Assembly (NCBI GenBank): GCA_018712785.1
Contig: DVGK01000112.1
Location: 399-64,398 of the forward strand
DNA length: 64,000 bases
From: Candidatus Choladousia intestinavium
GTDB taxonomy: Bacteria; Bacillota; Clostridia; Lachnospirales; Lachnospiraceae
Direction of reading: 5' to 3'
The position numbers and the translations under genes are program-made. This document shows positions 11,593 to 27,509 of the stretch, piece after piece; position 1 is the stretch's first letter, and each line of letters begins with the position of its first letter. Below the pieces are notes generated by a model that was not told where the DNA came from, did no database searches, and worked only from the letters and a program-made list of their open reading frames with translations.

Positions 11593-11692
11593 GAAAAGCG
11601 AGATAAATACTCAGGGTGAAACATAGAATCATAGAAAGCGGCCCGGTATGGGACTGGGCGAAAGGTATCAAAATCAGATAGGAGAATACAGA

Positions 11693-12544
11693 ATGAATCA
11701 GAAAACAAGCAGCAAACCCTCTGTTTTAAGATTAGTTTTGCAGATTTTTCAGGGAGCGCTGATCGGTCTGGGAGCCGTGCTGCCTGGAATCTCCGGCGGC
11801 GTGCTCTGCGTTGTATTCGGCATATATAAGACGATCATGGAGCTGCTCTCGAATCCCTTCCGGAATTTCAAAACCCATGTGCCGAAGCTGATTCCCGTTA
11901 TTATAGGAGCAGCCATCGGATTTCTGGGAATCGCCAATCTTCTGTCCTATTTCCTGGAGAGATATCCGGACACCTCCGTGTGCCTTTTTGTGGGATTGAT
12001 TACAGGAATGCTTCCCTCTCTGTTCCGTGAGGCGGGCGAGCAGGGAAGAACCCCCGGCTCCTTCTTCTCCATGGGAATTGCCATGGCGGTGATCTTTGCC
12101 CTTCTTGGCTGGCTGAACGCGGCGTCTATTGTGATTACGCCGAATTTCGGATGGTATCTTTTCTGCGGCTTCTGCCTTGCCCTCAGCGTGATCGCTCCCG
12201 GTATGAGCTTCTCCACACTGCTTATGCCCCTGGGACTGTATACGCCTTTTGTGGACGGAATCGGCCATCTCGATTTTTCGGTTCTGATTCCAGGGGGAAT
12301 CGGAGCGCTGGTTACAGTGATCTGCCTTGCCAAGGCTGTCAACGCCCTGTTTGATCACTTTTATAATCTGGCGTTTCATGCCATTATCGGAATTGTGATT
12401 GCCGCTACGGTCATGATCATTCCCTTTGACAGCTTTACTGTTTCTGCCGGTCAGACCATGACAAATCTTTTCTATCTGGTGATCGGAATTATAGCGGCTC
12501 TGGTTCTGGATTACTTCAATCAGAAGGTGCCTGTGGAGCAGTGA
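11693..12544 (+). CDS. DUF368-family polytopic membrane protein (family implicated in undecaprenyl-phosphate recycling)
   Basis: GLGAVLPGISGGV motif, repeated as APGMSFST in the second half. About 8 TM segments. Start chosen at the ATG after AGGAGA. Confidence 0.7.
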   Translation: MNQKTSSKPSVLRLVLQIFQGALIGLGAVLPGISGGVLCVVFGIYKTIMELLSNPFRNFKTHVPKLIPVIIGAAIGFLGIANLLSYFLERYPDTSVCLFVGLITGMLPSLFREAGEQGRTPGSFFSMGIAMAVIFALLGWLNAASIVITPNFGWYLFCGFCLALSVIAPGMSFSTLLMPLGLYTPFVDGIGHLDFSVLIPGGIGALVTVICLAKAVNALFDHFYNLAFHAIIGIVIAATVMIIPFDSFTVSAGQTMTNLFYLVIGIIAALVLDYFNQKVPVEQ

Positions 12545-12547
12545 GAT

Positions 12548-13012
12548 TCAGGATTCCTCCTCCTGAAAGGGAGGAAGAATGGAATAGATATTTTTTTCAG
12601 TTCTTAAGACATAATGGGTGCGGGTCATACCGACACCCTTTTGTTCTTTTATGCTGCGGTGAATTTCCTCCAGATCTTTGGAGGAGCGGCAGCAGATTTT
12701 CAGCATATAGTCGAATTCTCCTGTGAGATAATAGCAGGATACGATGTTGGGATGTTTTTGAATATAATGTACAAAGCTGTCAGAATACCTGGGATGCTCC
12801 AGACTGATTTCCATAAGAGCGGTCAGATCGTTTCCGAGACGCACTTCATCCGTAATCACTGTATAAGAACGGATGATTCCGGAGGCCTCCAGCTTATGGA
12901 TCCGGTCAATGACAGAAGATACAGAGAGATGAATCTCTCTGGCCAGATCGGAGGCTTTTATCCGTGCATTCTTCTTCAGGGCAGCTACTATTCGATAATC
13001 CAGAGCATCCAT
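12548..13012 (-). CDS. Lrp/AsnC-family transcriptional regulator
   Basis: MDALDYRIVAALKKNARIKASDLAREIHLSVSSVIDRIHKLEASGII is an HTH_AsnC N-terminus, followed by an AsnC_trans_reg-like C-terminus. Confidence 0.9.
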   Translation of the reverse strand: MDALDYRIVAALKKNARIKASDLAREIHLSVSSVIDRIHKLEASGIIRSYTVITDEVRLGNDLTALMEISLEHPRYSDSFVHYIQKHPNIVSCYYLTGEFDYMLKICCRSSKDLEEIHRSIKEQKGVGMTRTHYVLRTEKNIYSILPPFQEEES

Positions 13013-13028
13013 AAAAATTCCCCTTTCT

Positions 13029-13916
13029 TCAGGCTGAGATGGGACTGGGCGAAGAGGCCAGACGTTTTTCGGACAATTTCATCAGATCTGTGAGGATTTC
13101 CTTTTCCACCTGAAAAGAGAATCCGTCTACGCTTACCTGAGGCTTCTGGACCACTCCGTCCACACACCCTTTTTGTACAATTTTTTTCAGATACGCTTCC
13201 AGCTTTGAGATGCCGGGAAGAAGCTTCTCTCCCTCCAGCATTTCCATCCAGGCCGCGAGGCCGTAGGCCCCCCAGTTTGAGGTGGTGGCGATGATCAGTT
13301 CATCCACCTGAACCGCGCAGGGGGTAAACTGCAGCTTTCTGGCGATTACGTCCTTCAGATTTCCCATGCCGATTTCATTTCCGCCGTCGCCGATTCCCAC
13401 TGTGAGAATCCCTCTGGAGCGGGCCAGATCAAACATGGTGTCGATGGGAGCAGTTTTGCTGGCAATGCTGATACCGCGCATATTAATGTAGTCCTTCTCC
13501 GCCGTTTTTCCGCAGCGCTCCACGGAGATCAGGCAGACCGGCTGGTAGCGGGTCAGAAGCTCCCGGTAGATCCTGGAATCGGAGTTCACGGGAACGTATT
13601 CTACAGGAATTTTTTCCGACTCAAAAAGATTGCGGCAGTAATCGTCTGTGATCATAATGGGTGAGAAGCCCAGCTTCTGCAGGGCCTTTGCCAGAATAAA
13701 AGCGCCGGGAGGACCGTCTGTCTCCGCGTGTCCGTTTACATAGAAGCCGGTAGTGAGAAGCACAGTACCTCTCTCCAGGGCCAGAATCCGGTCAGCAGCT
13801 TCTTTGCAGAAATCTTTTTTCATATATTCCCGGAGGACAGTCATGCCTCTGGCGGAATAGCGGAGCATAATATCCTCGATGGACGACTGTTTTGGGACGG
13901 TTTTTGTCTCACTCAT
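13029..13916 (-). CDS. DUF4392 (D-glutamate cyclase-like) domain protein
   Basis: ETDGPPGA and GIGDGGNEIGMG motifs, as I remember them for DUF4392. Overlaps pxpA by 8 nt. Confidence 0.7.
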   Translation of the reverse strand: MSETKTVPKQSSIEDIMLRYSARGMTVLREYMKKDFCKEAADRILALERGTVLLTTGFYVNGHAETDGPPGAFILAKALQKLGFSPIMITDDYCRNLFESEKIPVEYVPVNSDSRIYRELLTRYQPVCLISVERCGKTAEKDYINMRGISIASKTAPIDTMFDLARSRGILTVGIGDGGNEIGMGNLKDVIARKLQFTPCAVQVDELIIATTSNWGAYGLAAWMEMLEGEKLLPGISKLEAYLKKIVQKGCVDGVVQKPQVSVDGFSFQVEKEILTDLMKLSEKRLASSPSPISA

Positions 13917-14697
13917 GATCCTTTCCTCCCTTGGCTAACTCATATAACGGAACAATCTGGATCCCATTCTCTTTCAGGGCCCGGCGAATCTGCCGGACGA
14001 AGGAAAGAGCAGAGGGACTATCCCCGTGAACGCAGATGGAATCTGCCTCCACTTCAATCTCTTTTCCGGTAATGGCCTCTACAGTACCTTTCTCAACCAT
14101 CTGAATGACCCGGCGGATGGCTTCATTCTCATCTGTAATCATAGAACCGGGTTTGCTTCTGGGCACCAGGGAGCCGTCCTCCTCATAAGCCCGGTCCGCG
14201 AAGACCTCCCGGGCCGCCCTCAAGCCGCATTTCCTGGCGGAGCGGATTAGTTCACTGTGGGCCGGGGCCAAAAGAATCAGCTGGTCGTCCACGGCTGCGA
14301 TTCCCCGGCAGATGGCGTCAGCGATCAGGGCATCCTTCGCAGCCATATTGTATAAAGCCCCGTGGGGCTTTACATGACACAGCGGTACGTCCTTGGCCCG
14401 GCAGAAGGCTAAAAGAGCGCCGATCTGGTATTCCACCAGGGCGGTGATTTCCGGCGCTGGAATGCTCATATTCCTTCTGCCGAAACCCACCAGATCCGGA
14501 AAGCCGGGATGAGCGCCTACGCTTACGTGGCTGTTCCTGGCGGATTCCACGGTCTTTTCCATGGTCAGCGGGTCAGAAGCGTGAAATCCGCAGGCTACGT
14601 TGGCTGAGGTGATCAGAGGAAGAATCTGGTCGTCCATGCCGCAGACATAGTTTCCAAAGCTTTCTCCCAAATCACAGTTTAAATCAACCGTATACAT
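13909..14697 (-). CDS. pxpA: 5-oxoprolinase subunit A (LamB/YcsF family)
   Basis: DLNCDLGESFG...ANVACGFHASDP...HVKPHGALYN is the LamB/YcsF signature. Confidence 0.9.
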   Translation of the reverse strand: MYTVDLNCDLGESFGNYVCGMDDQILPLITSANVACGFHASDPLTMEKTVESARNSHVSVGAHPGFPDLVGFGRRNMSIPAPEITALVEYQIGALLAFCRAKDVPLCHVKPHGALYNMAAKDALIADAICRGIAAVDDQLILLAPAHSELIRSARKCGLRAAREVFADRAYEEDGSLVPRSKPGSMITDENEAIRRVIQMVEKGTVEAITGKEIEVEADSICVHGDSPSALSFVRQIRRALKENGIQIVPLYELAKGGKDHE

Positions 14698-14728
14698 AAA
14701 GATGCTCCTTTCTGCTGATGTAAAAACT

Positions 14729-15514
14729 TTAATACTTGAGATTGATATTTTTAATATCGGTAATGAACATATGTCCCGGCGCGTGGGTGATGGCGAAAGG
14801 CGGTTTCGAGGCCATCACCGCGTTCTGAGGCGTAACGCCGCAGGGCCAGAAAACGGGAACCTCACCGGGCTGAATGGTTACAGGGTCGCCGAAGTCCGGC
14901 TTCGCCAGATCCCGAATTCCGATTACGGAAGGGTCGCCGATGTGTACGGGAGCGCCGTGAACCTTCGGCATTTCCCCTGTAATCTGGACGGCCTTTGGAA
15001 TCAGGCTGCAGGGAAGAGGGCGCATGCTGACGACCATGTTTCCGTGAAAAGCCCCGGCGGGCACACAGGGGAGATTCGTGCGGTACATGGGAACATTTTT
15101 TCCCTCTTCAATATGGCGGACAGGAACTCCGGCCTCCAGAAGATCCGCTTCAAAAGAAAAGCTGCAGCCGATCAGAAAGCTTACAAGGTCGTCCCGCCAG
15201 AAATCCGCCACCTCCCGGTATTCACCCTCCAGGACGCCGTCCCGGTAGACGCGGTACAGAGGCAGATCTAACGCGATATCAGAGCCTGGCGCGGTCCGGG
15301 AAAAGCAGCGGCTTCCTATATCGCTGACCTCCAGAAGGGGACAGGACTTTGGATTCCTCTGAGTAAACAAAAGAAAATCATAAGCCAGATCCTTAGGCAG
15401 CACCACCAGGTTTCCCTGGGCGTAACCACTGCACATGCCGGGAGTGGGACCTGTGATTTCACCTTTTCGAATCATAAGCCTGACTTGTTCAGGCTTCATG
15501 GCGGATGTATTCAT
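14729..15514 (-). CDS. DUF1445 / UPF0317 putative hydro-lyase (YcsI-like, D-glutamate cyclase catalytic-type domain)
   Basis: [53 protein letters not shown] matches the UPF0317 N-terminal signature. Confidence 0.8.
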
Positions 15515-16424
15515 AAATGTCTCCTTTCTGAGCTGACAGTTCCTGGGCCTCTTCTACAGAAATTCGGGAAAATCTTACCGTATCGCCGGGGCGGCACTGC
15601 ACCAGCCCGGGCAGGTCCAGGGAAAAAACAGTTGCGATTTTGGCATAGCCTCCTGTAGTCTGCCGGTCTGCCAGAAGGATAATCGGCTTTCCGGAGGAGG
15701 GAACCTGTATGGAGCCAAAGACAATGGCGTCAGAGATAATATCGGTTCCCCGGAGACTTTCAATTTCCGGCCCATCCATCCGGTATCCCATCCGGTCACT
15801 GTCAGGAGTAATGGTGTAGGAGGAAGAATAGAAGGTTTCAAGGCCATTCTCTGTAAAGGCTTCCTCCTGAGGACCCGGGATGACGCGGACAGTCACCTGA
15901 CTCTCATAGACGGCAGGGGGCAGGCTTCTGTTTAAAAGTTCAGCTTCCGGTACGGAAGAAGCCCCCACTGGGATCCGGTCCCCGGCCTTTAAAGCCCGGC
16001 CTTCCAATCCACCCAGAGAACATTTGATGCTGGTGGACCGGCTGCCCAGAACCACAGGAACATCAATGCCTCCTGCCAGAGCCAGGCAGGTCCGGCAGCC
16101 GTTTTCCGCCATCCCAAGGGAGAGAACCTGCCCGGCCTTTACCGAAAAGGGACGGTACATGGGGACGGGCCGGCCGTCCAGAGCGGGCTTCATATCGGCG
16201 CCTGTGAGAACGGCTGTCTCATCTGACTCAAAGAGATAGCTGCCGCCGTATATGGTGTGTTCCAAAACGGCCTCTCCGGCTGTGTTCCCTGCCAAGGCGT
16301 TGGCCGCGGCATAAGCATCCCGGTCCATAACGCCTCCGCAGGGAATGCCGGACTGCTGGTATCCCATCCGGCCCAGATCCTGAACCGTGGTCAGGGCGCC
16401 GGGAATCAAAACCTTCAGGCTCAT
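15489..16424 (-). CDS. pxpC: 5-oxoprolinase subunit C (KipA / allophanate hydrolase subunit 2 family)
   Basis: [32 protein letters not shown] and the [12 protein letters not shown]...[11 protein letters not shown] motifs. Confidence 0.9.
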
Positions 16425-17155
16425 GCCTGACTCCCCCTTTCCGTGATGTCTATCTTGTACGTTCCCCGGAGGATCATCTGCCGGATATCGTAGTAGTCCA
16501 AAATCGTTACAGGAACAAAGCGAATGTAATCCCCGGGGCGGCAGAGAACCGGTTCACTCCGGCCCGGATCATAGAAATCCACGGGTGTGCCGCCGATGAG
16601 CCGCCATCCTCCCGGCGAATCCAGAGGATAGACACCGGTCTGGCTGCCGCCGATTCCCACAGCTCCTTTTGGGATCTTCAGTCTGGGAACCGACAGCCGG
16701 GGGATATGAAGCCTCGGGTCAAGCCCACCAAGATAAACGAATCCCGGAAGAAATCCCAGCATATAGACCTTATAATCTGTGGAACTGTGAATGGCAATAA
16801 TTTCATCCCGGTCCAGTCCGGTGTGCTTTTCCATATCCGCGAGATCCGGACCGAAACGCGCCCCGTAGCAGCAGGGAATCTTCAGAAGACGTCCGGATTT
16901 TTCTTCCGCCGTCTCCGCCTGGGCGGCCAGACGGCGGATTTCCATGGCCAGACTGCCATATTTTATAGTCAAAGGATCATAGTACACAGTAAGAGAGCAG
17001 AAAGTCGGAACCAGTTCCAGTACTCCGGGAATTTCTTTGTGTGTGATTGCTTCCGCCAGAGCCCGCACCTGATCGTTGATAACGGGATCCACAGCGTTTC
17101 CGAACTGCAGTGTCAGAGCCTGATCGCCTGACGGGTACACTTTCGGCTCTCTCAT
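16421..17155 (-). CDS. pxpB: 5-oxoprolinase subunit B (KipI / allophanate hydrolase subunit 1 family)
   Basis: YPSGDQALTLQFGN...ELVPTFCSLTVYYDP...GGSQTGVYPLDSPGGWRLIG; 4-nt overlap with pxpC. Confidence 0.9.
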   Translation of the reverse strand: MREPKVYPSGDQALTLQFGNAVDPVINDQVRALAEAITHKEIPGVLELVPTFCSLTVYYDPLTIKYGSLAMEIRRLAAQAETAEEKSGRLLKIPCCYGARFGPDLADMEKHTGLDRDEIIAIHSSTDYKVYMLGFLPGFVYLGGLDPRLHIPRLSVPRLKIPKGAVGIGGSQTGVYPLDSPGGWRLIGGTPVDFYDPGRSEPVLCRPGDYIRFVPVTILDYYDIRQMILRGTYKIDITERGSQA

Positions 17156-17156
17156 A

Positions 17157-18014
17157 CTATGACACCTGCTTTCTTGTCACTTCGTAAAATTCCTCCAGAA
17201 GAGAGGAGCGGATTTTTTCCATCAGCTCCGGAGCCTTTCCTCCCACCGGCTTTCCGTCGATCTGGCAGGCTCTCAGACAAAGATTGCTGGAGCTGGTCAC
17301 AATGACCTCATCCGCGTCAAAAAGCTCCTTCAGCGTATAAGGCGTCTCGCTTACCGGTACGCCCAGACTCTTGCACATACGGATCAGATGGGCCCTGGCA
17401 ATGCCGGGAAGAATCAGATGATCTGTGGGGGCTGTGTAAAGCACTCCGTCCTTTAAAATATGAACGTTGCTGTGAGCGCATTCTGTGACGCGCCCCCCCG
17501 GACGGTAGAATACACTCTCCTGACAGCCGGCCTCTTTGGCCTTTTGAGCAGCCATGACAGAGGGAATCAGGTTCAGGGTTTTAATGTTGCAGTGGAAAAA
17601 ACGGGTATCCTCTGTGGTAATCAGTTTAATGGGGGTGAGTCCGTCTGAGATTTCCGCCGGCTTAAGCATAACCCAGAGATTTCCCGGCCCCTCTGTGAAA
17701 TCATGGTTCCGGATGCCGGTTCCTCTGGTTACCTGATAATAGACAAAGAGGTTGCCTGTATCCATTTTTAAAACAAGATCATACAGAAGATCCCGCAGCT
17801 CCTGTTTGGTGACAGGCATCTGGATTTTCAGCAGGCCCGCGCTGTTGAAGAACCGGTCGATATGTTCCTCAAGAGCAAAGATTTTATAGTTTCTGGCAGG
17901 TCCTGCATCGTAAACGCCGTCGCCGAACCAGCAGACCCGGTCATTCATGGGAACGGACATCTCAGACAGCTCCCCGTATTTTCCGTTGTAATATCCAAGT
18001 GTTTTCATATTCAT
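17157..18014 (-). CDS. dat: Class IV aminotransferase, D-amino-acid transaminase-like
   Basis: YYQVTRGTGIRNHDF, CNIKTLNLIPSVMAAQKAKEAGCQE and VTECAHSNVHILKDGVLYT align by eye with Bacillus Dat motifs (YFQVTRGT, CDIKSLNLLG, VTEGSSSNVF). Confidence 0.75.
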   Translation of the reverse strand: MNMKTLGYYNGKYGELSEMSVPMNDRVCWFGDGVYDAGPARNYKIFALEEHIDRFFNSAGLLKIQMPVTKQELRDLLYDLVLKMDTGNLFVYYQVTRGTGIRNHDFTEGPGNLWVMLKPAEISDGLTPIKLITTEDTRFFHCNIKTLNLIPSVMAAQKAKEAGCQESVFYRPGGRVTECAHSNVHILKDGVLYTAPTDHLILPGIARAHLIRMCKSLGVPVSETPYTLKELFDADEVIVTSSSNLCLRACQIDGKPVGGKAPELMEKIRSSLLEEFYEVTRKQVS

Positions 18015-18073
18015 CTGCCTCCCTTTACTTTACGGAAAGATCCCCGGCAGCGGCCGGGCCTTTATAAAAGAAA

Positions 18074-18119
18074 ACAGACGGCAGGGGAATCTTTTCTTTA
18101 CGACTCCCTTGCCGTCCGT
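18074..18119 (-). terminator. Promoter-proximal terminator-like hairpin in the leader of the dat-pxp operon
   Basis: 17-bp imperfect stem (ACGGACGGCAAGGGAGT / ATTCCCCTGCCGTCTGT on the minus strand) followed by TTTTCTTTTAT. Candidate TTGACA-17-TAAAAT promoter at 18127-18155 (minus strand). Confidence 0.5.
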
Positions 18120-18362
18120 TTTCTTGATTTTATACAGGTAAGAAAAAAATGTCAAGAATCACTTAAATTTCCTTAAAAATTAGCGCAAATATGGAGATAA
18201 GACAAAAAATATTTTGCAGAACAGGTATTACACGGAAAAATTTCAGGAACAAGCCTTCCAGACCGTTCCTTTACAGGAAAAGACCGGGCGTGATATCATA
18301 TATGAAATGAGAAAATGTTCAGGGAAGACTTCCGGATAAACCGGAAAAAGAGGAGGGAGTCC

Positions 18363-19502
18363 ATGGAACTTTATAAGCTTTGGAAAGAAGTGGAGAAGAA
18401 GTACCAGATGCGTCTGGAGGCGGGAGAAAAGGGCCTGTCAAGGGAGACGGACTGGGTACATATTATTGAATCCCTGCAGGTGGCGGAATTCCTAAGGGGA
18501 GGGGAGCTGGTGCTGACCACCGGAATGAAGGGAGAGGAGCAGTGGCTGCTGGAACTGGGAAAAAAGCTTTGGGAAAAGGAGGCCTGCGGCCTGGTGGTGA
18601 ACCTGGGGCCCTATATTAAGGAAGTTCCCCTGGCGCTTCTGGACTTTGCGGAGGAGAAGGATTTCCCTGTCTTTGTCATGCCCTGGGAGGTGCATCTGGT
18701 GGATGTGACCAGAACCATCTGCGGTCTTCTGAACGAATACGATATGACGGAACAGAAGCTGACGGAAGCGGTGGAGAACGCTCTGTACCACAGCCAGGTT
18801 CCGGAGATGTACCTTCCTTATATGAAGCGGTTTGGCTATCTGGCCGATTATAATTATCAGATCGCGGTTATGGACGTGAAGCTGGCAAGCCAGGATTACA
18901 GCGAGAGAGGAAGAATCTTAAGAGCCGTAAGGGGGCTGTGCCAGGAACTGCCGGTGCGGCCGGTGCTGTTCTGGCAGGAGGAGCGGCTGGTGCTGCTGCT
19001 GGCGGAGGACAGCGTCCCTATGTGCAGAGAGATCGTGGAAAAAGCCGTTTCCCTGGGGGAGAGCCGGAACTACGGACTGAGAGCCGGCATCGGACCGGTG
19101 GTCACTACTCTGGGATGTCTCCCGAGAACGTATGAGCACGCCATGGGAACCCTGGAGCTGGCCAGAAGGAAGCAGGAGAAGCTTTTGGATTATGAAGAGC
19201 TGGGGGCTTATAAGATTATCATGGACGTCCAGGACAGAAAGATGCTGAACCGCTACTGCAACGGCCTGCTGGGACCTGTGATGGAACAGGATGCCAAAAA
19301 ACAGACGGATTATATGGAGATGCTCCGGGAATATATTGAGACCGGCGGCAGCGTCCAGGAGATGGCGGAGCGCCATTTCTGCCACAGGAATACCATTACC
19401 TACAAAATCCAGAAGATAAAAGCTCTCCTGAATGTAGACCTGGACGATATGACCAGGAGGCTGGAAATTCTCCTGGCCTTCCAGATTCTGGACTGTCTGT
19501 AG
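18363..19502 (+). CDS. PucR-family transcriptional regulator
   Basis: C-terminal LREYIETGGSVQEMAERHFCHRNTITYKIQKIKALL is a PucR-type HTH. The N-terminal purine-catabolism-regulator-like region has GELVLTTG. ATG follows GAGGAGGGA. Confidence 0.85.
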   Translation: MELYKLWKEVEKKYQMRLEAGEKGLSRETDWVHIIESLQVAEFLRGGELVLTTGMKGEEQWLLELGKKLWEKEACGLVVNLGPYIKEVPLALLDFAEEKDFPVFVMPWEVHLVDVTRTICGLLNEYDMTEQKLTEAVENALYHSQVPEMYLPYMKRFGYLADYNYQIAVMDVKLASQDYSERGRILRAVRGLCQELPVRPVLFWQEERLVLLLAEDSVPMCREIVEKAVSLGESRNYGLRAGIGPVVTTLGCLPRTYEHAMGTLELARRKQEKLLDYEELGAYKIIMDVQDRKMLNRYCNGLLGPVMEQDAKKQTDYMEMLREYIETGGSVQEMAERHFCHRNTITYKIQKIKALLNVDLDDMTRRLEILLAFQILDCL

Positions 19503-19675: not shown

Positions 19676-19766
19676 GACAATAGGATGTTCGCGGAAGCGA
19701 ACCTACCATTGTTGAAAGCAGAGAGTCCGCCCGGCGTTCTTTCTGCTATAAGGAGGAGTGAATATT

Positions 19767-21092
19767 ATGACAAGAGAAGAGGTAGTAAGAAAGCATAAAA
19801 CGTACAATCTGCAGTCCTGGTCCGCCCAGGGAAGCCTGAACCCCAAGGCCATTAAGAGGGCGGAAGGCATTTACCTTTACGATTATGACGGAACAAGATA
19901 CAGTGATATGTCCGCGCAACTTGTGAACATGAATCTGGGACATGGCAACCGGGAGATCGTGGAGGCCATCAAGGAGCAGGCAGATAAATTCTGTTATATG
20001 GCTCCAAGCTACGCGGTAGAGAGCAGAGGCGTCCTGGCAGAGATGATCGTAGACCTGATGCCGGACAATATAGGAAAGGTTTTCTTCACCAACGCCGGAG
20101 CGGACGCCAATGAGAACGCGGTGAAGATCGCCAGAATGTACACGGGAAGGCAGAAAATCTTCAGCCGCTACAGAAGCTATCACGGTTCCAGCTACGGTGC
20201 GGCGAATCTGACGGGGGAGCCCAGAAGATTTCCCAGCGAACCGGGAATCCCGGGATTCGTTCATTTCTTTGATCCCTATGTGTATCAGGAAAAGATCCGG
20301 TTTGCCAGTGAGGAAGAGGCGGCGGACTTTTACGTGGCAAAGTTAAGAGAGCAGATTCTCTATGAGGGAGCGGAAAACGTAGCGGCCATTGTACTGGAAA
20401 CCATTACCGGATCCAATGGAGTGATCATTCCGCCGAAGGGATATCTGCCGGGGGTACGGAAAATCTGCGATGAATTCGGAATTCTGCTGATCTGCGATGA
20501 AGTAATGGCAGGCTGGGGCAGAACAGGAAAGATGTTCGCCTTTGAAAATTTCGGCATCAAGCCGGATCTCGTAACCTTCGCTAAAGGCGTTACCTGCGGA
20601 TATGTTCAGCTGGGCGGCGTGGCAGTCAGCAAGAAGATCGCGGAATATTTCGACGACCATAAGCTCATGTGCGGCCTTACCTACAGCGGCCATCCTCTGG
20701 CCTGCGCGGCAGGCGTCGCCTGCGTCAGCTACTACACAGAGCATCATATTCTGGAACACGTATGCCAGGTGGGAAAGGTTCTGGGAGAGGAGCTGGAGGC
20801 CTGCAGAAAGGATTATGCCTGCGTGGGCGACGTGCGGTACATAGGACTGTTTTCCGCCATAGAGCTGGTGAAAGACCGGGAGACCAGAGAACCGCTGGTT
20901 CCCTACGGGCAGGATCCGGAGAACCGGATGGGCAAGATTATCGGAATGCTGGCCGCCAGAGGTTTTATGACTTATTCCCATGAGAATATGATAATCATCG
21001 CGCCCCCGCTGATTATCACAGAGGAGCAGATCCGGGAAGAGATGGCCAAGGTAAAAGAGGTTCTGGCGATTGTGGATAAGGAATTTTTATAA
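19767..21092 (+). CDS. Class III (omega-type) pyridoxal-phosphate aminotransferase
   Basis: DEVMAGWGRTGKMFAFENFGIKPDLVTFAKGVTCGY is the class-III signature with the FAKG lysine. ATG 19767 has better SD spacing than GTG 19758. Confidence 0.88.
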   Translation: MTREEVVRKHKTYNLQSWSAQGSLNPKAIKRAEGIYLYDYDGTRYSDMSAQLVNMNLGHGNREIVEAIKEQADKFCYMAPSYAVESRGVLAEMIVDLMPDNIGKVFFTNAGADANENAVKIARMYTGRQKIFSRYRSYHGSSYGAANLTGEPRRFPSEPGIPGFVHFFDPYVYQEKIRFASEEEAADFYVAKLREQILYEGAENVAAIVLETITGSNGVIIPPKGYLPGVRKICDEFGILLICDEVMAGWGRTGKMFAFENFGIKPDLVTFAKGVTCGYVQLGGVAVSKKIAEYFDDHKLMCGLTYSGHPLACAAGVACVSYYTEHHILEHVCQVGKVLGEELEACRKDYACVGDVRYIGLFSAIELVKDRETREPLVPYGQDPENRMGKIIGMLAARGFMTYSHENMIIIAPPLIITEEQIREEMAKVKEVLAIVDKEFL

Positions 21093-21161
21093 AAAAATAA
21101 GAGATGCCGGGGTTAAAGGCGGAGAGAAAACCGCGGTGTCATGAAGGAGGGGACGGAGCCC

Positions 21162-21803
21162 ATGGAAAGATTTGTAATAGCCATTACCAGAACCTGCGGA
21201 AGCGGAGCCACTTCCATCAGTGAGATTCTTGCGGACGATTACGGCATTGATATGTATGACCGGAAGCTGCTCTCACTGGCTTCAGAGGAGAGCGGTATCA
21301 GCGAGGCCCTTTTCGCCAGTGTGGATGAGCATGTGCGCAACAGTCTTCTGTACCGGGTTTCCAAAAAGGTATACACCGGGGAACTGATCCCGCCGGAAAG
21401 CGGTAATTTCACCTCGGATGAGAATCTGTTTAATTATCAGGCAAAGGTGTTAAAGGAGCTGGCAAACCGGGAATCCTATATCTGCATCGGCCGGGCCTGC
21501 GACTACATTCTGAAGGATTTTCCCCATGTGCTGAAGGTGTTCATTTACGCTTCCAGAGAATGCTGTGTGAAGAAAGAGGCTTTGAGACAGGGGATTACGG
21601 AAAAAGAGGCGGAGAAGTACATCTACAAGACGGATAAATACCGCCGGGCCTACTATAAATATCATACAGGAAGAGAGTGGGAGGATCCGTATAATTACGA
21701 TCTGTGCCTGAACACAGAGGGGCTTACGTATACACAGTGTGCCCGGCTCATCGAAGCGCAGCTTAAGGAAAGATTCGGAGTGGAAATTCCCCAGGGAGCA
21801 TGA
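21162..21803 (+). CDS. Cytidylate kinase-like family protein (P-loop degenerate)
   Basis: ITRTCGSGATSISEILADDYGIDMYDRKLL resembles the Cytidylate_kin2-type family common in Clostridia. Confidence 0.65.
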   Translation: MERFVIAITRTCGSGATSISEILADDYGIDMYDRKLLSLASEESGISEALFASVDEHVRNSLLYRVSKKVYTGELIPPESGNFTSDENLFNYQAKVLKELANRESYICIGRACDYILKDFPHVLKVFIYASRECCVKKEALRQGITEKEAEKYIYKTDKYRRAYYKYHTGREWEDPYNYDLCLNTEGLTYTQCARLIEAQLKERFGVEIPQGA

Positions 21804-21928
21804 TTTTATATAGAAAAGAGAGAAACGAGGACGTTTCGGACAGGAAGCCGGAACGCCCTCGTTTGACGTATCAGGAAGGAAAATGGGAAATCCCATTTTG
21901 CGATATAAATTTATGAGGAGGAATGATT

Positions 21929-23074
21929 ATGAAAAAGAAGATCATGAGTATTGTTTTATCTGCGTCTATGCTGGCGTCTCTGGGTATGAGCCAGGGAGTT
22001 ATGGCTGAGGAGGACGACGGCGTCATAAAAATCGGCGTAGTAGCTCCCATGACCGGCGGTCTGGCTGTGCTGGGAGAAGGCTCACAGCATTCGGTGGATA
22101 TGGCAGTGGAGGAGATCAATGAACAGGGCGGATACCAGATCGAGATCCTGAACAGCGGAAACCTGGCGGACGACGCTTCCGATCCCACTCAGGCCATTAA
22201 CGCCTACAACTCCCTGCTGGCGGAGGATCCGGATGTAATTGTGGGAACGTATAATTCTTCCTGCTCCATCCCCATGGCTGAACTGGCTCAGGAGGGAAGC
22301 ATGGTAATGCTTTCTCCGGGTTCCACGAACGTGGAGGTGACAGAGGTGGGCGATTACATTTTCCGTACCTGCTTCATCGACCCGTATCAGGGTGAAATGG
22401 CGGCCCAGTTTGCCCAGTCGGAAGGATATACCACGGCGGCTGTGATTTACGCCAATGACGATGATTACTCAAACGGGCTGTATCAGGCCTTTGAGGAAGC
22501 CGCGGCAGACAGCGGCATTGAGATCCTCTATGTAGGAGAATGTACCACCAAGGATACAGACTTTACCGCGCAGGTTTCCCAGGCAGTGGCTTCCGGAGCT
22601 GAGATGCTTTTCTATCCCTGCTTCCTGGACACCGTACCCCTTCTTGTGCAGCAGGCCAGAGACGCCGGATTCACAGGCGCCATTGTAGGCGGGGACGCAT
22701 GGGACGGTTGCGATACTGCAGGACTTGAGACAGCTTTTGAAAATACATTCTACACGAACCACTTCTCCTATGAGGATACCTCAGAGGCAGTGCAGAACTA
22801 CGTGACGAAGTTTACAGAGAATTACGGAAGCGATACCCTTACCGCATGCGCGGCTCTGTACTATGATTCGATTTACATGGTGGCGGCAGCGGCGGAAGCA
22901 GGCGGCGGAACCGATACGGAATCCATCAAGACAGGTATGACGAACCTGGAATTCTCAGGCGTTACAGGAAGCTTTACCCTGAATGACACGGGAGATCCCA
23001 TCAAGCCAGTGGTAGTAAATACCCTCGTAGACGGCGCCTGCACCTGGTATACGACTCTGGAACCGGCAGAATAA
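21929..23074 (+). CDS. Branched-chain/amino-acid ABC transporter substrate-binding protein (LivJ/Peripla_BP_6-like)
   Basis: IKIGVVAPMTGGLAVLGEGSQHSVDMAVEEINEQGG. The signal peptide has no lipobox cysteine (…GVMA/EEDD). Confidence 0.85.
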   Translation: MKKKIMSIVLSASMLASLGMSQGVMAEEDDGVIKIGVVAPMTGGLAVLGEGSQHSVDMAVEEINEQGGYQIEILNSGNLADDASDPTQAINAYNSLLAEDPDVIVGTYNSSCSIPMAELAQEGSMVMLSPGSTNVEVTEVGDYIFRTCFIDPYQGEMAAQFAQSEGYTTAAVIYANDDDYSNGLYQAFEEAAADSGIEILYVGECTTKDTDFTAQVSQAVASGAEMLFYPCFLDTVPLLVQQARDAGFTGAIVGGDAWDGCDTAGLETAFENTFYTNHFSYEDTSEAVQNYVTKFTENYGSDTLTACAALYYDSIYMVAAAAEAGGGTDTESIKTGMTNLEFSGVTGSFTLNDTGDPIKPVVVNTLVDGACTWYTTLEPAE

Positions 23075-23200
23075 CCGGTCAGCAAACCCTCTGCCCCGGC
23101 AGATATCGGCCGGGGCAGTATAATCATTCTGCCGCGGAACGGACGGCCCGTGACGGAGAGGCAGACGGGAAACGATATCAGCGACAAGGAGGATGAGAGC

Positions 23201-24094
23201 GTGGCATTATCATTATTTTTACAGAGTCTGGTAAATGGACTGAATCAGGGAGCCATCTATGCCCTGATCGCTCTGGGGTATACAATGGTTTACGGTATCA
23301 TCCGTATGATCAATTTCGCTCACGGTGATTTCATTATGGTGGGCAGCTATACACTGTTTTACACGGTTCCCCTGATGGTATCGGCGGGAATGCCGGCCTG
23401 GATGGCTGTGTTTATTGCCATCGCTGTCTGTGTGGCGGTAGGCGTCATTGTGGAAACCGTGGCCTATAAGCCGGTGCGGAATGCGGGAAGCATGTCGGCT
23501 CTGATTACGGCTCTGGCTATGAGCGTATTCCTGGAAAACCTTGCCATGGTGCTTTTCGGCGCAAGCCCCAAATCTGTATCGGCCATTTTTACCCTTCCCA
23601 CTTTTCAGTTTCTGGGGGCCACCCTTCAGATCAAATATCTGCTGACCCTGGGAATCGGCCTTGCCATGATGGCGGGACTTCAGCTTTTCGTGAGAAAAAC
23701 CAGGCTTGGGAAGGCCATGAGAGCTGTGCCTCAGGATAAAGAGGCCTCTGTACTGGTAGGAATTAACGTAAACCGCATCATCACCATCACCTTTGCCATC
23801 GGTTCGGGTCTGGCTGCGGTGGCCGCTCTTATGTACTGCTCCACATATCCCAGATGTACCATGGATATGGGCTCCATGATGGGCTTGAAAGCGTTTATTG
23901 CCGCCGTCCTGGGAGGAATCGGCATTATTCCGGGAGCAATGCTGGGAGGACTTCTGGTGGGTCTGATCGAAATATTTGTAAAGGTATATATCGCTCCCGG
24001 CTGGTATGAGGCCATTACCTACGGAATCCTGATTGTAGTGCTTCTGGTGAAGCCGGCAGGAATCCTGGGTAAGAATGTAGGGGAGAAAGTATAA
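23201..24094 (+). CDS. livH: Branched-chain amino acid ABC transporter permease (LivH-type), GTG start
   Basis: FLQSLVNGLNQGAIYALIALGYTMVYGIIRMINFAHGD. AAGGAGG lies 8 nt before the GTG. Confidence 0.88.
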   Translation: MALSLFLQSLVNGLNQGAIYALIALGYTMVYGIIRMINFAHGDFIMVGSYTLFYTVPLMVSAGMPAWMAVFIAIAVCVAVGVIVETVAYKPVRNAGSMSALITALAMSVFLENLAMVLFGASPKSVSAIFTLPTFQFLGATLQIKYLLTLGIGLAMMAGLQLFVRKTRLGKAMRAVPQDKEASVLVGINVNRIITITFAIGSGLAAVAALMYCSTYPRCTMDMGSMMGLKAFIAAVLGGIGIIPGAMLGGLLVGLIEIFVKVYIAPGWYEAITYGILIVVLLVKPAGILGKNVGEKV

Positions 24095-24106
24095 GGAGGG
24101 ACAGCG

Positions 24107-25120
24107 ATGCCACAGGAAAGAAAGAAGTCTTACGTAATCAATTTTATAGGTGTGCTGATTGTGTTTCTTCTGTTGCTGGCTCTGTTTGAGTCGAATCTTT
24201 TAGGCAGCAGAACGAACTATATTAAAGGAATCTGCACCACAGCCTGCTACACGATTATTATGGTGGCCTCCCTGAACCTTCTCACAGGCTTTATGGGGGA
24301 ATTCTCACTGGGGCATGCGGGGTTTATGTCCGTAGGAGCGTATGCCTCCGCCATCGCCACAGGCTTTTTGGACGATTCCGGGCTGCCTGTCTTTGTACTG
24401 TTTCTGCTGGCGCTGGCAGTGGGAGGAATTGCCGCGGCCGTGGCAGGTGTGGCGGTGGGTATTCCGGCTCTCAGGCTTCGGGGAGATTATCTTTGTATTG
24501 TGACGGTGGCTTTTGCGGAGATTATCCGGGTGGCTTTCTGTAATTTTGAAATTACAGGAGGCGGACGCACCTTAAGCGGGATTACCTCCCTGTCTAATTT
24601 TTACTGGGTATTCTGGGCTATGGTCATCTGTGTGGGACTGATGTATATGTTCGTCCGTTCCAGATTCGGCCGTGTGGTGACGGCTATCCGTGAGGATTAC
24701 ATAGCGGCCTCCGCCAGCGGGATCAACGTAACCTTTTACAAGGTTCTTACCTTTACGGTTTCGGCCTTTTTCGCGGGAATCGCAGGGGCTATCTACGCTC
24801 ACTATATGACGGCCCTGATTCCCACAAATTTTGATTTCATGTATTCTGCCGAATTCCTGACAGAGGTAATTATCGGAGGAACCGGCTCTCTTACCGGGTC
24901 TATCATCGGAGCGGCCTTCCTTTCCGCCCTGCCGGAGGTAATGCGCCAGTTCGCCACCTACCGGATGCTGATGTATTCCATCGTGCTGGTGCTGGTTATG
25001 ATCTTTAAGCCCGGCGGGATCTTCGGAACCTGGGAGTTTTCCCTTACCAGGCTCCTTGGCAGGCTGACCGGAAGGAAGCGGGAAAATAAAACGGTGTCAG
25101 GAGGTGCGGTGCATGAGTAG
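24107..25120 (+). CDS. livM: Branched-chain amino acid ABC transporter permease (LivM-type)
   Basis: NLLTGFMGEFSLGHAGFMSVGAYASA motif. Confidence 0.88.
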   Translation: MPQERKKSYVINFIGVLIVFLLLLALFESNLLGSRTNYIKGICTTACYTIIMVASLNLLTGFMGEFSLGHAGFMSVGAYASAIATGFLDDSGLPVFVLFLLALAVGGIAAAVAGVAVGIPALRLRGDYLCIVTVAFAEIIRVAFCNFEITGGGRTLSGITSLSNFYWVFWAMVICVGLMYMFVRSRFGRVVTAIREDYIAASASGINVTFYKVLTFTVSAFFAGIAGAIYAHYMTALIPTNFDFMYSAEFLTEVIIGGTGSLTGSIIGAAFLSALPEVMRQFATYRMLMYSIVLVLVMIFKPGGIFGTWEFSLTRLLGRLTGRKRENKTVSGGAVHE

Positions 25121-25916
25121 TGAAAAGAAAAAAGAAGTTCCTGTACTGCAGGCCAAGAGCCTGGGCATACAGTTCGGAGGTCTTCGGGCTGTGCAGGATT
25201 TTAATATGGAGATCGCCCAGAGCGAACTGGTGGGGCTCATCGGACCAAACGGCGCCGGAAAGACCACAGTGTTCAACATGCTTACGGGAGTCTATCAGCC
25301 TACGGAGGGGAGCTTTTACTTAAACGGCGTAAAAATGAACGGAAAGAAAACCCACCAGGTAGTGGAAGCGGGGATCGCCAGAACCTTTCAGAATATCCGC
25401 CTCTTTAAGAAGCTGTCTGTGGAAGAGAACGTAAAGGCAGCCATGAACATGCATATGACCTACAGTCTGGCCTCCGCTCTGTTCCGGGGAAAACAGTACT
25501 GGAAGCAGGAAGAAGAAGTCCACGAAAAAGCTCTGGAGCTTCTGAAGGTGGTGCGTCTTGAGGATAAAGCGGACGTAACGGCCCAGAACCTGCCCTACGG
25601 GCAGCAGAGGCGGCTGGAGATTGCCAGAGCCCTGGCCACCGGGATGAAGCTGCTTCTCCTGGATGAGCCGGCGGCCGGCATGAATCCCACAGAGACGGCG
25701 GAGCTTCTGGAGATCATCAACCTGATCCGGGATAAATTTAAGATACCGGTTCTCTTAATCGAGCATGACATGAGCCTGGTTATGAAGATCTGCCAGAGAA
25801 TCCAGGTCATTGACTATGGTATTACCATCGCTTCCGGAACGCCGGAGGAGATCGCCAACAATCCCAGGGTAATCGAAGCGTATCTTGGAAAAGACGAGGA
25901 GGAAGCCGTATGCTGA
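25113..25916 (+). CDS. livG: ABC transporter ATP-binding protein (LivG-type)
   Basis: GLIGPNGAGKTT Walker A, YGQQRRLEIARAL signature, LLLDEPAAG Walker B. 8-nt overlap with livM. Confidence 0.9.
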   Translation: MSSEKKKEVPVLQAKSLGIQFGGLRAVQDFNMEIAQSELVGLIGPNGAGKTTVFNMLTGVYQPTEGSFYLNGVKMNGKKTHQVVEAGIARTFQNIRLFKKLSVEENVKAAMNMHMTYSLASALFRGKQYWKQEEEVHEKALELLKVVRLEDKADVTAQNLPYGQQRRLEIARALATGMKLLLLDEPAAGMNPTETAELLEIINLIRDKFKIPVLLIEHDMSLVMKICQRIQVIDYGITIASGTPEEIANNPRVIEAYLGKDEEEAVC

Positions 25917-26614
25917 AAATTTCAAACTTAAATGTGTCCTACGGCGCCATCCATGCCATCCATGATGTAAGCATGGAAGTGGGGGACGGGGAGATCGTCT
26001 CCCTGATCGGCGCCAACGGAGCGGGAAAAACCACGATCCTTCACAGCATTACAGGTTTAAAGAAAGCAGACTCCGGAACCATTGAATACAACGGCCAGGA
26101 TCTGATCAAAACAGAGCCAAGCAAAATCGTCACCCTGGGCATGGCCCATGTGCCGGAAGGGAGGCACGTATTTCCCACTATGACGGTGGAGGAAAACCTG
26201 GAGATGGGGGCGTATATAACCTCTGACAAAGAGAAGATCAAAAAGACGGCGGAGAGCGTATTTGAACGGTTCCCCAGACTGAAGGAGAGAAGGAAGCAGC
26301 TGGCGGGAACCCTTTCCGGAGGGGAGCAGCAGATGCTGGCAGTGGGAAGAGCCCTTATGAGCAATCCTTCTATCCTGCTGATGGATGAACCCTCCATGGG
26401 ACTTTCCCCCCTTCTGATCCGGGAGATTTTCAGCATCATAAAGGCCGTCCATGAGCAGGGGATCACCGTCCTCCTGGTAGAGCAGAACGCGAAGATGGCT
26501 TTATCTATCGCGGACAGGGCTTATGTGCTGGAGACCGGGAGGATCAGCATGACCGGAACCGGACAGGAACTGCTGAACAATGAGAATGTGAAGAAAGCGT
26601 ATCTGGGAGCTTAG
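25910..26614 (+). CDS. livF: ABC transporter ATP-binding protein (LivF-type)
   Basis: GANGAGKTT, LSGGEQQMLAVGRAL, LLMDEPSMGLSP. Confidence 0.9.
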   Translation: MLKISNLNVSYGAIHAIHDVSMEVGDGEIVSLIGANGAGKTTILHSITGLKKADSGTIEYNGQDLIKTEPSKIVTLGMAHVPEGRHVFPTMTVEENLEMGAYITSDKEKIKKTAESVFERFPRLKERRKQLAGTLSGGEQQMLAVGRALMSNPSILLMDEPSMGLSPLLIREIFSIIKAVHEQGITVLLVEQNAKMALSIADRAYVLETGRISMTGTGQELLNNENVKKAYLGA

Positions 26615-26636: not shown

Positions 26637-26766
26637 ATATTTTATGCAGGATGCAGGAATCTGTTGCTCTTAAAACAGGAATAGAGTATAATAATACCGT
26701 CTGTTGGCAAAGAGGACAGAATTTAATTTCTGCTCTGAAATAATAAAGAAAAACGGAGGGTTTTAT

Positions 26767-27450: not shown

Positions 27451-27509
27451 GGAAGAACGGCAAAGGTTTCTGCGGCAGCTGCGGGCAGGAACCGGAAGGG
27501 AGAAGGACT

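Follow-up and report, generated by a model that had tools for sequence, protein, structure and literature searches.

An operon of 5-oxoprolinase, split D-glutamate-cyclase-type and D-amino-acid transaminase genes behind a conserved leader hairpin in gut Lachnospiraceae and other lineages

A 64,000-nucleotide (nt) stretch of DNA from Candidatus Choladousia intestinavium (contig DVGK01000112.1), hereafter the window, carries on its minus strand a compact operon that encodes, in order, a D-amino-acid transaminase (Dat), the PxpB and PxpC subunits of the prokaryotic 5-oxoprolinase, a DUF1445 protein, the PxpA subunit, a DUF4392 protein and an AsnC-type regulator (Table 1). An earlier reading of the same letters (the original prediction) had described seven co-directional genes here and had assigned each of them to a family. 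The open reading frame listing reproduced all seven genes between 12548 and 18014 at the coordinates given before, together with the junctions as described, namely a 1-nt gap, a 4-nt overlap, a 26-nt overlap, a 31-nt gap, an 8-nt overlap and a 16-nt gap. The searches with hidden Markov models that had been proposed as a check were run, and Pfam upheld the seven family calls, including the placement of the two cyclase-type proteins in DUF1445 and DUF4392, with E-values from 1e-19 to 1e-104 and in agreement with NCBIfam. Identical copies of the operon were found on two independent metagenome (Logan) contigs and many species-level genomes repeat the gene set in the same order, so that the arrangement is not a product of chance. 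As for the start of Dat, the spacing from a GGAGG ribosome-binding site is 3 nt for the ATG at 18014 and a more suitable 9 nt for the next one, at 18008 (region 18008-18026); translation probably begins at the second ATG, giving a protein of 283 amino acids (aa), which is also the product called on the Logan contigs. The last gene of the operon encodes a protein with both domains of the AsnC/Lrp family, an N-terminal AsnC-type helix-turn-helix (HTH) and a C-terminal RAM ligand-binding domain, according to Pfam.

Table 1. Features of the operon, its leader and the divergent neighbouring genes in the window (L numbers denote loci of the comparative sample described in the text).
Feature	Coordinates	Strand	Evidence or remark
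Dat, D-amino-acid transaminase, fold type IV	17157..18014	-	Pfam Aminotran_4 1e-46
PxpB (KipI family), 5-oxoprolinase subunit	16421..17155	-	Pfam CT_C_D 5e-77
PxpC (KipA family), 5-oxoprolinase subunit	15489..16424	-	Pfam CT_A_B 2e-95
DUF1445 / UPF0317	14729..15514	-	Pfam D-Glu_cyclase PF07286 2e-72; 26-nt overlap with pxpC
PxpA (LamB/YcsF family), 5-oxoprolinase subunit	13909..14697	-	Pfam LamB_YcsF 2e-104
DUF4392	13029..13916	-	Pfam GLUCM-like_C PF14336 1.5e-77; 8-nt overlap with pxpA
AsnC/Lrp-type transcriptional regulator, final operon gene	12548..13012	-	Pfam PF13404 (HTH_AsnC-type) and PF01037 (AsnC_trans_reg)
Sigma-70-type promoter-like site TTGACA-N17-TAAAAT	18127..18155	-	11/12 consensus matches
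Leader hairpin and U-tract	18058..18125	-	arms 18125-18102 and 18091-18068; inverted repeat 24 nt, 88% complementary; 23-bp hairpin
Conserved 12-nt motif GGCAAGGGAGUC	18102..18113	-	consensus G-R-C-A/G-R-N-G-N-N-G-Y-C; 5' half of hairpin
PucR-family regulator, possibly associated	18315..19502	+ (divergent)	Pfam PucR, GGDEF_2, HTH_30; homologues beside cluster in L023, L036
Class III aminotransferase, possibly associated	19758..21092	+	Pfam Aminotran_3; PDB 6JIX 4e-161; 72%-identical copy beside cluster in L023
Cytidylate-kinase-like protein PF13189, possibly associated	21141..21803	+	homologues beside cluster in L004, L008, L023, L036
LIV-type (HAAT) amino-acid ABC importer, five genes, likely uptake system	21923..26614	+	Pfam
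LIV-type substrate-binding protein	21923-23074	+	best PDB matches are LIV-type binding proteins
LIV-type permeases	23150-24094, 24107-25120	+	
LIV-type ATPases	25104-25916, 25910-26614	+	

All three subunits of the 5-oxoprolinase, of the LamB_YcsF, CT_C_D (KipI) and CT_A_B (KipA) families, are present and co-encoded. Against NCBIfam, PxpB passed the PxpB equivalog TIGR00370 (209 bits, cut-off 145), PxpA passed subfamily models only (NF003814, PxpA subfamily, 374 bits) and PxpC passed the domain model TIGR00724 with 321 bits, its score for the PxpC equivalog (258, cut-off 500) lying below the cut-off. PxpABC has been validated as an L-5-oxoprolinase in E. coli, B. subtilis, C. difficile and C. 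glutamicum, and enzymes of this type vary in their lactam specificity, as known from P. putida paralogues; butyrolactam is a substrate of PxpABC paralogues. The identity of the window proteins to the validated E. coli PxpA, PxpB and PxpC (49, 43 and 38%, respectively) favours the view that the window enzyme would keep ATP-dependent 5-oxo-L-prolinase activity, and the sequences hold no hint of a D-specific PxpABC.

The head gene of the operon had been proposed to encode a Dat-type enzyme rather than a branched-chain transaminase (IlvE) or a 4-amino-4-deoxychorismate (ADC) lyase. Two D-amino-acid transaminase models of NCBIfam gave the best scores (212.7 and 209.9 bits, as compared with 145 for the best branched-chain model and 96 for the best ADC-lyase model), the top one, TIGR01121 (D_amino_aminoT), standing about 67 bits above its branched-chain competitor. 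The best PDB matches were to the D-amino-acid transaminase (DAAT) of Bacillus (1DAA/3LQS, 2e-49), and mapping by alignment showed that K145, E177 and L201 of that enzyme, as well as its Y31/R98/H100 carboxylate trap, are all present in the window protein, as K145, E178, L202, Y35, R102 and H104. This alpha-carboxylate trap, Tyr31/Arg98/His100, is the signature of canonical D-amino-acid transaminases. With the Dat models scoring best and the catalytic and trap residues kept, the Dat assignment stands. Among the best 120 homologues identity was at least 81%, and the source names, where given, are aminotransferase class IV, D-amino acid aminotransferase or D-alanine transaminase.

The original prediction had also recognized in the DUF1445 and DUF4392 proteins the two parts of a split D-glutamate cyclase (DGLUCY), and this held, with both domain families present, in the order of the animal fusion and with the metal ligands conserved. 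The animal enzyme consists of an N-terminal DUF1445 and a C-terminal DUF4392 domain and converts D-glutamate to 5-oxo-D-proline (PMC5339696; PMC5132392). A single polypeptide of this type was not found in the operon, in which two open reading frames with pxpA between them encode the two domains; all close homologues are likewise single-domain proteins, of 274-357 aa. "Split" DGLUCY homologues of gut bacteria have been listed, six in number and without context or function, in a table of a 2025 survey (PMC12547972). The DUF1445 protein, which passed NF003969 ("putative hydro-lyase") with 418 bits and matched the structural-genomics entries 3DB9 and 2PIF (Atu3911, PSPTO_5379) at 1e-100, is homologous to the N-terminal domain of the animal cyclase and to B. 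subtilis YcsI/PxpI, whose gene lies inside the pxp operon of that species (PMC10448178); its single-sequence AlphaFold2 model was unusable, with a predicted local distance difference test (pLDDT) score of 28.7. The DUF4392 protein is homologous to the C-terminal domain of the animal enzyme and to TON_0340 (PDB match 7e-31), in which Glu59, Asp61, Glu115, Asp157, Glu161 and Asp246 form a site for two Mn2+/Mg2+ ions (PMC5132392). The equivalents of these six acidic ligands in the window protein, E65, D67, E133, D177, E181 and D264, are invariant in 24 homologues. TON_0340 was also the sole fold match of the AlphaFold2 model of the DUF4392 protein (pLDDT 87.5), with a template-modelling (TM) score of 0.76-0.84 at about 30% identity; the runners-up of the fold search, DHH/RecJ-like and Rossmann-type proteins with TM scores below 0.4, were uninformative on mechanism.

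In order to obtain the gene-neighbourhood statistics that had been suggested as a further check, we collected with a DUF4392 alignment 80 species-representative genome loci carrying DUF4392, and counted as partners the homologues of the window proteins found by tblastn within 10 kb of it, a Dat orthologue being defined by at least 45% identity. A DUF1445 gene was present in 50 of the 80 loci, and in 33 it stood immediately upstream of DUF4392, as in the animal fusion; a Dat orthologue was found in 21, and PxpA, PxpB and PxpC in 19-20. The complete set of DUF4392 and all five partners occurred in 13 loci, belonging to Lachnospiraceae and other Clostridia, a Peptococcaceae metagenome-assembled genome and the Negativicutes (Schwartzia). 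This co-occurrence across many lineages argues that the genes work together. The usual order is Dat-PxpB-PxpC-DUF1445-PxpA-DUF4392, with DUF4392 first in Schwartzia and Dat last in two loci; the membership kept despite such rearrangements points to selection on co-expression. In several lineages pxpC and DUF1445, and pxpA and DUF4392, overlap or abut. A homologue of the AsnC gene flanks the cluster in L004, L006, L012, L013, L032, L085/L086 and L089.

Smaller combinations of the same genes were also observed. Dat and DUF4392 occur without the other cluster genes in Eggerthellaceae and in a Methanomethylophilaceae archaeon, DUF1445 and DUF4392 occur alone in about 30 genomes of Dehalococcoidia/Chloroflexota, Latescibacterota and Campylobacterota, and Sulfurospirillum has DUF1445-DUF4392-PxpA-PxpB-PxpC without Dat. 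The cluster extends beyond the Firmicutes, which had not been noted before. In Ca. Bariatricus faecipullorum the order AsnC-Dat-PxpB-PxpC-DUF1445-PxpA is found with no adjoining DUF4392 (L089, 7234-12156), a natural variant that could reveal the contribution of DUF4392. The cultured or very common gut species in which the cluster was found are Claveliimonas bilis, [Clostridium] hylemonae (complete genome AP025566.1) and a Dorea lineage, whose Dat has index entries in over 2,500 blocks of the assembly collection; just downstream of the Dorea cluster (L087/L088, 6568-14630) lie genes of nitrogen metabolism, for asparagine synthase (asnB), amidophosphoribosyltransferase (purF) and a type III glutamine synthetase (glnA). 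Dat is the most conserved member, with a median identity of 77% in full clusters as against 52% for DUF4392. In the Eggerthellaceae and the archaeon with the two-gene pair (L033, L034, L040, L041), the Dat orthologue is 62-76% identical to that of the window and the neighbouring DUF4392 43-48%, and a conservation of Dat so far above that of DUF4392 suggests strong constraint or horizontal transfer among gut organisms. The 22 loci where DUF4392 has no partner were considered as a lead and set aside, the neighbours sampled in about 10 of them being unrelated (ThyX, MatE, cyclophilin, flavodoxin and others).

Upstream of the operon we found a leader that was absent from the original prediction, the end coordinate of which, 18155, coincides with the promoter-like site of Table 1. 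Related loci have a TTGACA(T) -35 box and a TAnAAT -10 box at the same relative position. The 126-nt leader RNA folds with -55.1 kcal/mol (z = -6.2), none of 200 shuffled sequences being as stable, and its hairpin, situated between promoter and first gene, has the appearance of an intrinsic terminator or attenuator. An alignment of 14 leaders picked by position alone contains four invariant bases within the 12-nt motif. A possible fold of the motif is a 3-bp stem and a hexaloop, in which A at loop position 1 (A1) occurs in 17 and G at loop position 4 (G4) in all of 21 sequences, with 98% of the stem cells paired and the middle pair being A-U in 11, G-C in 6 and G-U in 3; this 21-sequence set was partly selected by a regular expression, which favours pairing, and its counts are supportive only. 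In about 20 species-level loci (besides the window, L004-L007, L009, L010, L012, L013, L016, L021-L023, L032, L036, L083, L085, L087 and L089) the first cluster gene has the same layout before it, namely a sigma-70 promoter and, 15-25 nt further on, a hairpin and its U-run. The first gene after the leader is mostly Dat; it is PxpB in L016, L023 and L036, DUF4392 in L021 and, in Dorea (L087/L088), a sodium:alanine symporter gene that stands before Dat.

With its own promoter and U-tract, the motif was also found before LIV-type importer operons (L007, about 5177, minus strand; L009, about 5023, minus strand) and before an OppBCDFA-type peptide importer operon (L005, about 16110, minus strand), and when the window and some 1.4 Mb of loci were scanned, few other matches appeared, none with a promoter. 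This suggests that the leader-bearing operons form a small regulon of enzymes and importers, the shared leader tying the ones to the others; co-regulated importers were likewise absent from the original prediction. An Rfam search of the leader returned no family, only chance matches of microRNA models on the hairpin. Attenuation through a leader peptide was rejected, as no consistent start codon follows a Shine-Dalgarno-like motif across the leaders, and a DNA operator is less likely, as the motif always lies on the sense strand and inside the terminator hairpin. The element is new here and is a candidate new regulatory RNA.

Two further associations, both outside the window, bear on the substrate. 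A gene for a MurD-like ligase adjoins DUF4392 in six loci of five phyla (L017, L019, L029, L044, L047 and L066, from Lachnospiraceae, Omnitrophota, Rokubacteria, Methylomirabilia and Saprospiraceae), and five of these loci have an adjoining MurL-like gene (NF041275) as well; in C. bilis a MurL/MurD-like pair lies 2 kb from the cluster (L083/L084, 12805-15592). MurD2 and MurL build the D-glutamate of peptidoglycan on the nucleotide precursor from L-glutamate, in organisms without synthesis of free D-glutamate, and the five groups just named are not part of the distribution reported for them (PMC8788868). In such organisms free D-glutamate from wall turnover cannot be reused directly. The adjacency of DUF4392 to MurL/MurD-like genes, which had not been noted before, suggests a further link to D-glutamate. 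In Sulfurospirillum (L042, 404-9725, and L043), genes for a dCache sensor kinase, an OmpR-type regulator and a DctPQM tripartite ATP-independent periplasmic (TRAP) transporter stand directly upstream of DUF1445-DUF4392-PxpABC. The best PDB matches of this DctP are 2PFZ (5e-46) and 2PFY (1e-34), which we take to be the receptors of Bordetella pertussis from which the pyroglutamate-binding DctP subfamily was defined. That subfamily has been described (PMC12344293). The presence of a pyroglutamate-type TRAP transporter before the cluster speaks for 5-oxoproline being taken up and used, not produced.

The genes divergent from the operon in the window end in a LIV-type ATP-binding cassette (ABC) importer (Table 1). 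In L004, L007 and L009 the cluster is immediately adjoined by orthologues of this importer with 60-82% identity, and the copies beside it in L023, L036 and L030 are more distant; the PucR-family and the kinase-like genes are both beside the cluster in L023 and L036, L023 having the class III aminotransferase as well. In L008 (43-6083) DUF4392 is followed by a cytidylate-kinase-like gene on the same strand and then by an Opp-type ABC transporter, an arrangement from which the kinase-like protein appears to travel with whichever importer accompanies the cluster. A relationship of the LIV-type binding protein to the L-pyroglutamate-binding protein of SAR11 (8WCH) was considered and rejected, the two being unrelated and the best matches being ordinary LIV-type proteins. 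Beyond the importer, genes of the D-lyxose isomerase and aldose 1-epimerase families (26704-28385, plus strand) apparently belong to unrelated sugar metabolism. On the other side of the operon, a gene for a DUF368/PopT-like polyprenyl-phosphate transporter (11648-12544, plus strand), next in line after the rpoA-rplQ ribosomal cluster, is convergent with the AsnC gene, and the stop codons of the two are 3 nt apart, leaving no room for terminators between them.

Gene content, conserved catalytic and metal-binding residues, conserved linkage and the conserved leader are direct observations, and from them we infer which substrates are handled and in which stereochemical form, which way the flux runs and how the operon is regulated. 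We would give an even chance to the reading that the operon is a salvage and utilization route for a pool of D-glutamate and 5-oxoproline (pyroglutamate), fed most plausibly by cell-wall turnover and by gut or dietary sources. D-glutamate, 5-oxoproline or peptides containing them would be imported by systems whose genes lie with those of the enzymes and, in some species, share their regulation, namely the LIV-type ABC importer here and an Opp-type ABC importer, an alanine symporter or a pyroglutamate-type TRAP transporter in relatives. PxpABC would convert 5-oxo-L-proline and ATP to L-glutamate, and the DUF1445 and DUF4392 proteins, as a split cyclase with a Mn/Mg centre, would interconvert 5-oxo-D-proline and D-glutamate. 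Dat would then turn D-glutamate and pyruvate into 2-oxoglutarate and D-alanine, and in this way pull the uphill opening of the D-lactam. Expression would be gated by the promoter-proximal terminator hairpin with its hexaloop motif, and probably also by the AsnC-type regulator. The link to D-glutamate is supported by the pairs of Dat and DUF4392 and by the MurL/MurD-like neighbours of DUF4392, and the direction of uptake and utilization by the pyroglutamate-type DctP upstream of the Sulfurospirillum cluster and by the leader motif on LIV- and Opp-type importer operons.

Several points weigh against the salvage route. Cyclization of glutamate is thermodynamically favoured, and ring opening without ATP by a cyclase-type enzyme would therefore be inefficient; moreover, if PxpABC also accepted the D form, the cyclase and the ATP-driven prolinase would run a futile cycle. 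A dedicated D-glutamate/5-oxo-D-proline route had been proposed in the original prediction, and its supports (the family calls, the Dat type, the split DGLUCY and the linkage) stood, but the futile cycle is a problem which it had not addressed. The score of Dat, 212.7 bits, is below the equivalog cut-off of TIGR01121 (277.45). None of the partner genes lies within 10 kb in 22 of the 80 DUF4392 loci, and DUF1445 and DUF4392 are each also seen alone with partners, so that the two need not be one enzyme. The class III aminotransferase next to the LIV-type importer is very close to the taurine:2-oxoglutarate aminotransferase of Bifidobacterium (6JIX), and with so taurine-like a neighbour the adjacent ABC module may serve another pathway or amine. 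The literature searched contains no biochemical or genetic data on any bacterial DUF1445 or DUF4392 protein, and the sole DUF4392 protein assayed, TON_0340, gave a weak Mn-dependent phosphatase activity and not that of a cyclase (PMC5132392).

The main rival, which we regard as rather unlikely, makes PxpABC, DUF1445 and DUF4392 one D-specific or enantiomer-blind ATP-driven 5-oxo-D-prolinase that feeds D-glutamate to Dat. In such a five-protein complex the cyclase-type proteins would give the D-specific lactam chemistry and PxpBC the ATP-dependent pull, and the futile cycle would be avoided. The overlaps of pxpC with DUF1445 and of pxpA with DUF4392, or their abutment in relatives, suggest translational coupling and a fixed stoichiometry of this kind, and DUF1445 occurs in pxp operons without DUF4392, both in B. 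subtilis (ycsI/pxpI, PMC10448178) and in Ca. Bariatricus; the differences in lactam specificity among PxpABC paralogues and the failure of the window PxpA and PxpC to reach the NCBI equivalog cut-offs point the same way. However, in about 30 genomes the DUF1445-DUF4392 pair has no PxpABC within 10 kb, the animal fusion is active without PxpABC, and the window PxpABC resembles the E. coli enzyme as closely as ordinary orthologues do.

The importer links, the pairs of Dat and DUF4392 and the pyroglutamate-type TRAP transporter suit the three other explanations less well. It is unlikely that the operon merely groups housekeeping of the glutamate pool, with PxpABC repairing or utilizing L-5-oxoproline (DUF1445 and DUF4392 being accessory) and a biosynthetic Dat making D-glutamate for the wall from D-alanine and 2-oxoglutarate. 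This would agree with the validated activity of PxpABC in four species, with the asnB, purF and glnA genes downstream of the Dorea cluster and with the supply of D-glutamate by Dat-type enzymes in some Firmicutes (PMC8788868), but it leaves unexplained the Dat and DUF4392 pairs of Eggerthellaceae and of a methanogen lineage of wall-less type, the leader motif on importers and the pyroglutamate-type transporter before DUF1445-DUF4392-PxpABC, and the MurL/MurD-like genes of C. bilis would make free D-glutamate unnecessary for the wall. Removal of D-glutamate, in which DUF1445 and DUF4392 would cyclize a surplus or imported supply to 5-oxo-D-proline for export, PxpABC would act on the L-lactam only and Dat would balance D-alanine and D-glutamate, appears very unlikely. 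Its direction and role are those shown for the animal enzyme (PMC5339696) and DUF4392 does adjoin MurL/MurD-like genes where free D-glutamate has no use; yet the cluster is accompanied by no conserved exporter, only importers being conserved and co-regulated with it, and Dat by itself already removes D-glutamate usefully. Most improbable of all is another lactam or cyclic amide (a gamma-D-glutamyl or pyroglutamyl peptide fragment, a hydantoin-propionate-type compound or an omega-lactam) yielding a D-amino acid other than glutamate. In its favour, PxpABC paralogues act on butyrolactam, a peptide importer of the Opp type has the leader in common and comes after the cluster in L005 and L008, an earlier annotation of DUF4392 was hydantoin racemase-like (PMC5339696) and TON_0340 showed only phosphatase activity; however, the specific links, i.e., DGLUCY homology, Dat type, MurL/MurD neighbours and pyroglutamate-type DctP, are all to glutamate derivatives and no result singles out a candidate compound.

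Returning to the salvage of D-glutamate and 5-oxoproline, a bolder form of it can be put forward tentatively, as a possibility well short of even. The operon might be the core of a regulon for salvage of peptidoglycan-derived D-glutamate in abundant gut Lachnospiraceae, in which the DGLUCY pair, possibly docked to PxpABC, would make 5-oxo-D-proline accessible, Dat would yield 2-oxoglutarate and D-alanine, and the set with its importers would be switched by a new single-hexaloop antitermination RNA that senses the pool. If true, this would give a function to DUF1445 (PxpI of B. subtilis) and to DUF4392, and would explain why DUF4392 travels with MurL/MurD2. As every bacterial cell wall contains it, D-glutamate is among the most abundant D-amino acids of the gut, and 5-oxo-D-proline is the form in which mammals excrete it. 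DUF1445 has been unexplained in the well-studied pxp operon of B. subtilis and DUF4392 has solved structures without a physiological substrate; the operon gives both a context. Since it occurs in cultured and abundant human-gut species (Dorea, C. hylemonae, C. bilis), its function is directly testable, and such tests would show which half of the animal D-glutamate cyclase does what. The link of DUF4392 to MurL/MurD also widens the known range of the alternative pathway of wall synthesis.

The individual proteins are all of known families. The statement that no bacterial 5-oxo-D-proline route has been worked out was borne out in the literature searched, the 2017 PxpABC paper lying outside that scope, and the same literature describes neither the combination of genes in the operon, nor the split form of the cyclase, the D-transaminase at the head or the leader. 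The nearest known counterparts of the leader are the ANTAR target RNAs (eut, nasF and amiE leaders), the recognition sequence of which, AGCAANGRRGCUY, overlaps the 5' side of a terminator and follows an A1/G4 hexaloop rule (PMC3369931). The window leader likewise has a small A1/G4 hexaloop hairpin over the 5' side of an intrinsic terminator, its motif is close to the ANTAR P2 site, and nitrogen-related genes lie downstream in both. The leader is a candidate antitermination element that is probably protein-dependent. ANTAR binding, however, needs two hairpins, P1 and P2, whereas the window leader and most of the others show one, a tandem hexaloop pair being found only in L009 (GACAGAGAGGUC GGCAAGGUUGCC). 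Unlike in ANTAR leaders, the hexaloop hairpin begins within about 15-25 nt of the -10 box, and a crude motif scan of the window and about 1.4 Mb of fetched loci (not whole genomes) found no ANTAR-domain gene.

As compared with the Dat of Bacillus sp. YM-1 and B. subtilis (EC 2.6.1.21), the window enzyme is alike in fold type IV, in the catalytic Lys and Glu and in the carboxylate trap. It differs in having A-H-S in place of the loop SSS180-182, in falling below the equivalog cut-off and in belonging to a very conserved group (62-85% identity across phyla) that is cluster-linked and not stand-alone. The known PxpABC operons (E. coli ybgJKL; B. subtilis pxpA-ycsG-ycsI-kipI-kipA; C. difficile kipOTIA; C. 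glutamicum pxpTABC) encode the same three subunit families together as does the window, and in B. subtilis a DUF1445 gene lies inside the operon as it does here. Unlike these, the window operon has a D-amino-acid transaminase at its head and a DUF4392 gene, it is without their NRAMP or PxpT transporter, and its PxpA and PxpC lie below the equivalog cut-offs. MurL- and MurD-like genes, as in the MurD2/MurL pathway of Xanthomonas, adjoin DUF4392 in other loci and were not found in the window.

TON_0340 of Thermococcus onnurineus (4DWZ, 4FC5, 5GKX, 5GL2-4) has the fold and all six metal ligands in common with the window DUF4392 protein; it has been described as a weak phosphatase, whereas the genomic contexts of DUF4392 in this analysis argue for a substrate related to D-glutamate. 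The mitochondrial DGLUCY of animals (C14orf159, EC 4.2.1.48) comprises the same two families in the same N-to-C order, and the metal-binding acidic residues of its DUF4392 half are conserved in the window protein. It is one fusion, whereas the window encodes two proteins with pxpA between them, alongside an ATP-dependent lactamase and a transaminase. Finally, the animal enzyme disposes of D-glutamate as 5-oxo-D-proline, whereas the bacterial context, with its importers and Dat, suggests utilization.

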